From sequence record PP925826.1: DNA of 64,000 nucleotides; one strand, 5' to 3'. Of the stretch, positions 35,394 to 35,780 are shown one piece after another; the stretch's first letter is position 1, and each line of letters opens with the position of its first letter. Under the pieces are notes generated by a model. The model had not been told where the DNA came from. It ran no database searches and saw only the letters and a list, made by a program, of their open reading frames with translations. The translations under genes were made by a program, and so were the position numbers. Origin of the DNA: Escherichia phage Antha.

Positions 35394-35780
35394 ATGAAAG
35401 TATTAAATTTTTACCACTTAGGTAAAGTAATACCTGAAGGTGCAGTGTACATTGGCAGAGCTATGCCTCATATGGGGTTAAAAGCCTCAAAGTTTGCAAA
35501 TCCTTTTAAGTTAAAGGATGATGAACCACGAGGATCAACTATACAAAGATATAAAGAGTGGTTGTGGGAACAAATTCGTTGTGGTAAAATCACTCTTGAG
35601 GATTTGTTAGAATTAGAAGGGAAAGACTTAGTTTGCTTCTGCTCACCTCAACCTTGTCATGGTGATGTGTTAGTAGCAGCGGTTGCTTGGGCTAGAACAG
35701 AGTGGGATAAAAGGCATCCTACTTACACAGATGATTATTGGATTTGGGAGGATATTTATGAAGACTACACAAGAAATTAA
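35394..35780 (+). CDS. DUF4326-like protein (possible YbiA/NADAR-superfamily relative)
   Basis: VYIGR..SKFANPF..YKEWLW..GKDLVCFCSPQPCHGDVL pattern. Confidence 0.4.
   Translation: MKVLNFYHLGKVIPEGAVYIGRAMPHMGLKASKFANPFKLKDDEPRGSTIQRYKEWLWEQIRCGKITLEDLLELEGKDLVCFCSPQPCHGDVLVAAVAWARTEWDKRHPTYTDDYWIWEDIYEDYTRN

Follow-up and report, generated by a model that had tools for sequence, protein, structure and literature searches.

The DUF4326 gene and its product

The 64,000 nucleotide stretch of Escherichia phage Antha analysed in this work (PP925826.1; the whole of it is called the window below) comes from a phi92-like myovirus (genus Justusliebigvirus), with 99.1% identity to VEcB and 98.2% identity to phi92 over 4 kb. 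It carries a stand-alone gene for a small protein of the DUF4326 family, whose features are listed in Table 1. The open reading frame (ORF) has its ATG at 35394, one base past the stop codon of the preceding gene, and its TAA at 35778-35780, and the product starts with MKVLNFYHLGKVIPEGAVYIGRAMPHMGLKASKFANPFKLKDDEPRGSTIQRYKEWLWEQIRCGKITLEDLLELEGKDLVCFCSPQPCHGDVLVAAVAWARTEW. In the phi92 record the gene is given a TTG start, which corresponds to 35370 here and yields a 136 amino acid product. This form is probably too long and the ATG the better start, since the homologues begin with MKVLNF or MKILNF, the annotation of phage PaulScherrer has the 128 amino acid form and the ATG is next to the upstream stop. 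The following gene, the orthologue of phi92 gp201, has its ATG at 35758 and shares 23 nt (35758..35780) with the DUF4326 coding sequence (CDS), within the segment that codes for the disordered C-terminal tail of the protein. A scan for promoters and terminators gave scores no better than those of shuffled sequence.

The assignment to DUF4326, proposed in an earlier note on this DNA from a sequence motif, is borne out by the Pfam scan. Residues 10-94 match PF14216 at profile positions 5-81 of 82, with E=1.4e-21 and 77.3 bits, the curated gathering cut-off being 25 bits. The motif itself (YIGR..NPF..Y..WL..GK.L.C.C.P..CH.DVL) is literally present in the product. The protein also matches PHROG 464, annotated as function unknown (E=2.6e-42), and the NCBIfam scan found no model for DUF4326. 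Across 192 non-redundant family domains fourteen residues are conserved at 88-99%, and all of them (Y19, G21, R22, N36, P37, R46, L74, L79, C81, C83, P85, C88, H89 and G90) are retained in the phage protein, as is F38 of the family NP(F) signature. Around the cysteines the values are 99% for C81, 98% for C83, 95% for P85, 99% for C88, 98% for H89 and 88% for G90, and in the two upstream motifs 97% for R22, 97% for N36 and 94% for P37. Since every family-invariant residue is kept, the sequence looks like that of an intact, apparently active family member.

Bacteriophage T4 has a homologue in the 108 amino acid NrdA.1 (NC_000866 142671..142997; E=7e-13, 39% identity over 57 residues), which has the motif C-x-C-x-P-x-P-C-H-G-D in common with the protein studied here. 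With respect to PF14216, T4 NrdA.1 and phi92 gp202 there is no substantive difference, the match to the hidden Markov model (HMM) being full-length and all invariants being present. When compared to minimal bacterial DUF4326 proteins, the phage copy and its close relatives add an 8-residue insert (MPHMGLKA) between GR and SKF and, at the C-terminus, a disordered tail of 20 residues.

The family is very large, and in the literature found no member has been experimentally characterised. Searching 1.84 billion representatives with a profile yielded 23,424 family representatives (50% identity) at E<=1e-3, and tblastn detected DUF4326 in 990 of 50,697 phage records (about 2%), including T4-like, Vi1-like and jumbo phages. 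Copies 98-100% identical to the protein are already deposited for phi92-like phages. The gene is already in the databases, the family assignment and the predicted link to adenosine diphosphate ribose (ADP-ribose) are already published, and there is little new biology in either. What is added here is a correction of the fold proposed in the earlier note, the demonstration that a label linking the protein to NrdA is spurious, a natural fusion of Macro, NADAR and DUF4326 domains, and NADAR as the closest solved structure.

Table 1. Position of the DUF4326 gene, its motifs and the other genes discussed (window coordinates unless a contig is named)
Feature	Position	Strand	Evidence or remark
DUF4326 CDS (phi92 gp202 orthologue, T4 NrdA.1 family)	35394..35780	+	ORF, 128 aa, stand-alone
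Y19-I-G-R22 motif	35448..35459	+	conservation
S32-K-F-A-N36-P37-F38 motif	35487..35507	+	conservation; extended loop, without helix or strand in AF2 model
Predicted active site L79-V-C81-F-C83-S-P85-Q-P-C88-H89-G90	35628..35663	+	conservation, AF2 model
NADAR (YbiA-like N-glycosidase)	27037..27588	-	Pfam E=3.1e-36; TIGR02464 E=1.8e-31; PDB 8bau E=6e-12
Macro-domain gene	47593..48327	+	Pfam Macro E=2.3e-7; DarG-like macro E=5.9e-13
CobB-like sirtuin, 270 aa	1209..2021	+	Pfam SIR2 E=4e-22; E. coli CobB 1s5p E=8e-18
UvrD/Rep-type helicase	37147..39921	+	intein-interrupted according to annotation of PaulScherrer orthologue
Ter-type cluster	46112..55453	+	HAD, PRTase, Macro and Ter genes
HAD hydrolase	46112..46768	+	
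ComF-like PRTase_3	46761..47618	+	
TerC	48884..49861	+	
TelA	51640..52743	+	
vWA-TerF-like	53990..54784	+	
TerD	54857..55453	+	
P0135 (Macro-NADAR-DUF4326), contig L084	6268..7686		metagenomic contig
P0135 (Macro-NADAR-DUF4326), contig L085	8001..9419		metagenomic contig

Predicted fold and superfamily kinship

The AlphaFold2 (AF2) model, based on a 57-sequence alignment, has a mean predicted local distance difference test score (pLDDT) of 90.7 and shows a small alpha/beta domain, about 105 residues long, in which residues 1-107 are folded and the tail (108-128) has a pLDDT of 55-60. The layout is composed of a strand (3-5), an extended region containing the YIGR and SKFANPF motifs, two helices (46-63 and 68-72), a core strand (79-81) and a last helix (89-107). 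A divergent homologue of 96 amino acids (P0098) was modelled with the same layout at a pLDDT of 96.2. In the model the core strand is closed by C81-x-C83 and followed by a Pro-rich loop, and C88-H89 start the last helix. A strand ending in a conserved Cys (LVC, 79-81), a loop (C83-SPQP-C88-H89) and the N-terminus of a helix are thus predicted to follow one another. The canonical C-x5-R loop is absent, the phage protein having C83-x4-C88-H89-G90 with a His at x5+1 and a Gly next.

The RapZ-C/DUF488/DUF4326 clade, which Burroughs and Aravind reportedly defined in 2023, is a better-supported home for the family than the NADAR superfamily. In the tandem DUF4326 protein P0214 the Cys loop of one domain (residues 160-206) passes the Pfam cut-offs of both DUF488-N3a (28.2 versus 27) and DUF488 (23.6 versus 22.2), and DUF488-N3a is the sole recurrent Pfam cross-hit in 94 single-domain DUF4326 members. 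The motifs are collinear, as DVR...NP...C-x5-HR of RapZ-C runs parallel to YIGR...NPF...C-x4-CHG of DUF4326. In hhalign alignments, which are not statistically significant, YIGR falls on DVR of RapZ-C and VDR of YeaO/DUF488, and R22 is on sequence grounds a candidate phosphate-binding Arg. The SKFANPF segment is collinear with LPNPHW of RapZ-C. Rare DUF4326 members, such as P0214, have CHR instead of CHG. There are also differences, as DUF4326 has C-x-C-x-P-x2-C-H-G where DUF488 and RapZ-C have C-x5-R: the P-loop Arg is missing in DUF4326, which has extra cysteines, and YeaO has none of the DUF4326 cysteines. The profile of DUF488 is too shallow for a fair comparison, the homologue search having given no sequence below 70% identity to YeaO, and no DUF488 structure was found in the PDB.

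The earlier note had grouped DUF4326 with NADAR in a YbiA-like superfamily, which is not established. On this account DUF4326 would have its place in the NADAR/YbiA-like superfamily as a reduced form that matches the C-terminal half of NADAR, with ADP-ribose conjugates bound or cleaved in a pocket like that of NADAR and a Cys in place of the NADAR glutamate; we regard this as unlikely. NADAR was nevertheless the best PDB structural match for two models, YbiA 2b3w and NADAR 8bat being among the top 13 both times. With a 269-sequence DUF4326 profile, hhalign pairs residues 1-86 with NADAR 64-137, in its C-terminal half (GR-GR, W-W and LVCFCSP-FVEASP), at a score of 20.1. All of the 150 column shuffles scored lower, as did 145 of the 150 block shuffles, and the empirical p (about 0.01-0.03) is suggestive only. 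The hhalign probability itself is only 3.9% with the broad profile and 0.2% with the narrow one, whose alignment is of low diversity (effective number of sequences, Neff, 2.35) and uninformative against both NADAR and YeaO. A Foldseek search of the PDB found nothing below E=1.7 and no NADAR chain. The NADAR Pfam model gave no match at E<=1 for the phage protein and cross-hits in none of the 94 family members. DUF4326 is about half the size of NADAR/YbiA (PF08719; PDB 8BAU, 8BAT, 2B3W) and lacks the N-terminal half with its invariant SNW, EQYMM, D..WG.G and G.NLLG motifs; the only possible counterparts of NADAR invariants are GR and V-x-x-x-P, and Cys/His are found in DUF4326 where NADAR has Glu/Ser/Asp. 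The two families have a common theme, NADAR being a frequent fusion partner that is encoded in the same phage, and their repeated fusion in one protein suggests complementary and not redundant activities. The literature places DUF4326 in a different superfamily, as one distinctive clade among the rhodanese-phosphatases (Iyer et al. 2022, PMC9503650). The resemblance to NADAR is real but unproven.

Domain fusions, proposed function and alternatives

Fusions were surveyed in the 37 multidomain proteins found among the best 150 family representatives, which do not sample the family at random. Fusions of the X-NADAR-DUF4326 type account for 6 of the 37, always in this order, and SLOG domains (YAcAr or DprA-like) for at least 9. 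One of the six, the 472 amino acid P0135, is a Macro-NADAR-DUF4326 triple fusion and was confirmed on two metagenomic contigs. Further partners in the same set are ASCH, a DnaA_C helix-turn-helix, DUF3800 and tandem DUF4326. A link of DUF4326 to ADP-ribose processing is a published prediction of the Aravind group, made with fusions (PMC9503650, PMC7824862). The recurrent NADAR fusions, the one Macro-NADAR fusion and the SLOG fusions reproduce the published ones independently, so that the functional link is supported at the level of domain architecture, and with it the ADP-ribose theme of the earlier note.

Some of these proteins are unusual in other respects. The contigs carrying P0135 contain mostly ORFans together with DnaJ and DUF4116 genes and are probably derived from a large virus. 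The tandem proteins P0121, P0126, P0134, P0144, P0147 and P0214 have two or three DUF4326 domains joined by Lys/Ser-rich linkers, several of them being eukaryote-like in appearance, and in P0147 (1411 amino acids) YAcAr SLOG and DUF4326 alternate twice.

NADAR and the LOG-type SLOG proteins are N-glycosidases that release ribose-5-phosphate-type products, and a partner acting on ribose-linked phosphate would therefore be coherent with them. Our best explanation, to which we give about an even chance, is that DUF4326 is a Cys/His enzyme that works together with NADAR, SLOG and Macro domains and has ribose-linked phosphate of ADP-ribose- or nucleotide-derived molecules as its target. The strand-Cys-loop-helix element would be an active site like that of phosphatases, thiol-based and of the RapZ-C/DUF488/DUF4326 type, in which H89 together with R22 and R46 may stand in for the arginine of CX5R. 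Judging from the fusions, the substrate would be a phosphate or phospho-ribosyl group of an ADP-ribose- or nucleotide-derived small molecule, and the DUF4326 step would immediately precede or follow those of the N-glycosidases NADAR and SLOG, alongside Macro. The three activities united in the Macro-NADAR-DUF4326 polypeptide of some viruses would be provided by separate genes in this phage. The role may be to clear host immune signals derived from nicotinamide adenine dinucleotide (NAD+) or ADP-ribose, or toxic by-products, in early or middle infection, and the fusions with NADAR, Macro and SLOG make DUF4326 a candidate for a missing step in the viral dismantling of such signals.

Several points weigh against an ADP-ribose or nucleotide phosphate enzyme of this kind. 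Its relation to RapZ-C and DUF488 draws on sub-significant sequence scores (hhalign P=0.13 and 0.39) or on few cross-hits. Two prolines lie in the putative P-loop, and a Gly is found where CX5R has its Arg, which would make a non-canonical phosphatase cradle, and the three Cys and the His could bind zinc instead. Searching the PDB by sequence and by profile gave no solved DUF4326 relative, and in the literature found on PF14216, nrdA.1 and DUF488 there is no functional study and no DUF4326 biochemistry. The fusion counts come from the best-matching representatives. The genomic surroundings offer little in favour either: the flanking genes (34195..37145) have Pfam and PHROG matches only to families of unknown function, of 80 viral loci only 4 have NADAR no more than 10 kb away from DUF4326, and the DUF4326 neighbours in the 80 loci are mostly replication and recombination genes.

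These neighbours suggest a different substrate. The protein could process DNA or RNA ends in phage replication, recombination or nucleic acid modification, for example by taking off a terminal phosphate or phospho-ribosyl adduct, and not be a small-molecule ADP-ribose enzyme at all; we see a small chance of this. Primase-helicase, DNA polymerase and Mre11/Rad50-type genes recur in the 80 loci, the DUF4326 gene of PhiSH19 comes after the subunits of a recombination endonuclease, and nrdA.1 of T4 lies between td and nrdA. In the window 1.3 kb separate the gene from the intein-containing UvrD-like helicase downstream, and NrdD/NrdG are close by. The DnaA_C helix-turn-helix and ASCH fusions point the same way, and fusions to replication and restriction-modification components have been published (PMC7824862). 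These neighbourhoods are, however, not conserved, as the 80 diverse viral loci have no conserved gene partner and no cluster occurs in more than 10 of them, and replication genes abound in large phages in any case, in their early and middle regions. The fusion partners found most often remain NADAR and SLOG, whose substrates are nucleotides or ADP-ribose.

A further explanation is that DUF4326 is a minimal, Cys/His-armed homologue of NADAR, corresponding to its C-terminal half, so that NADAR and the RapZ-C/DUF488/DUF4326 clade would share an ancestral ribose-phosphate-binding core. The phage would then bring two related domains of unlike chemistry to bear one after the other on a single ADP-ribose-derived immune signal, the N-glycosidase being Glu-based and the phospho-ribosyl enzyme thiol-based. 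We consider this quite unlikely.

It is very unlikely, in our opinion, that DUF4326 is a non-catalytic module in which C81, C83, C88 and H89 form a structural zinc site and which serves as a ligand sensor or adaptor, like RapZ-C, regulating its partners. The top conservation does fall on three Cys and one His (C-x-C-x4-C-H), the loop is Pro-rich and without the CX5R arginine, RapZ-C, which is among the nearest structures, is a binding domain, and arrays of two or three DUF4326 domains occur. On the other hand a zinc knuckle would have no need of R22, N36-P37 and R46, whose conservation is just as high, neighbouring Cys and His are an unusual pair of zinc ligands, and no zinc-ribbon Pfam model recurs in the 94 members, which gave single matches only, at E>0.006.

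The label "ribonucleotide reductase NrdA-like", borne by PHROG 24867, phi92 gp202 and several GenBank records, has virtually no chance of being correct and is rejected, because it was spread by name propagation from nrdA.1, the positional name of the T4 ORF beside nrdA; the protein has no similarity to NrdA and no reductase match in the Pfam or NCBIfam scans, and has 128 residues as against about 750 for NrdA, so that no part in ribonucleotide reduction is indicated.

ADP-ribose related genes in the window

The earlier note had counted three dispersed ADP-ribose-processing folds in this phage. NADAR, Macro and DUF4326 are indeed encoded, with the NADAR gene about 8 kb from the DUF4326 gene on the opposite strand and the Macro gene about 12 kb downstream of it, and we infer that their products are functional partners of the DUF4326 protein. 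The count is incomplete, as the CobB-like sirtuin constitutes a fourth NAD+-using domain in the window. O-acyl-ADP-ribose is a product of sirtuins and a classic substrate of Macro domains. Nor is the Macro gene free-standing: it is part of a module of phosphoribosyltransferase (PRTase), phosphatase and Ter genes.

With E. coli K-12 as their host and a separate small gene for each of the three activities, the phage and its relatives in the BASEL collection are a convenient system in which to test the proposed role in dismantling immune signals. Directly upstream of the NADAR gene, on the same strand (27589..28578), is a gene for a protein with a CapR-homology domain (E=2e-25) and a T5orf172 domain.
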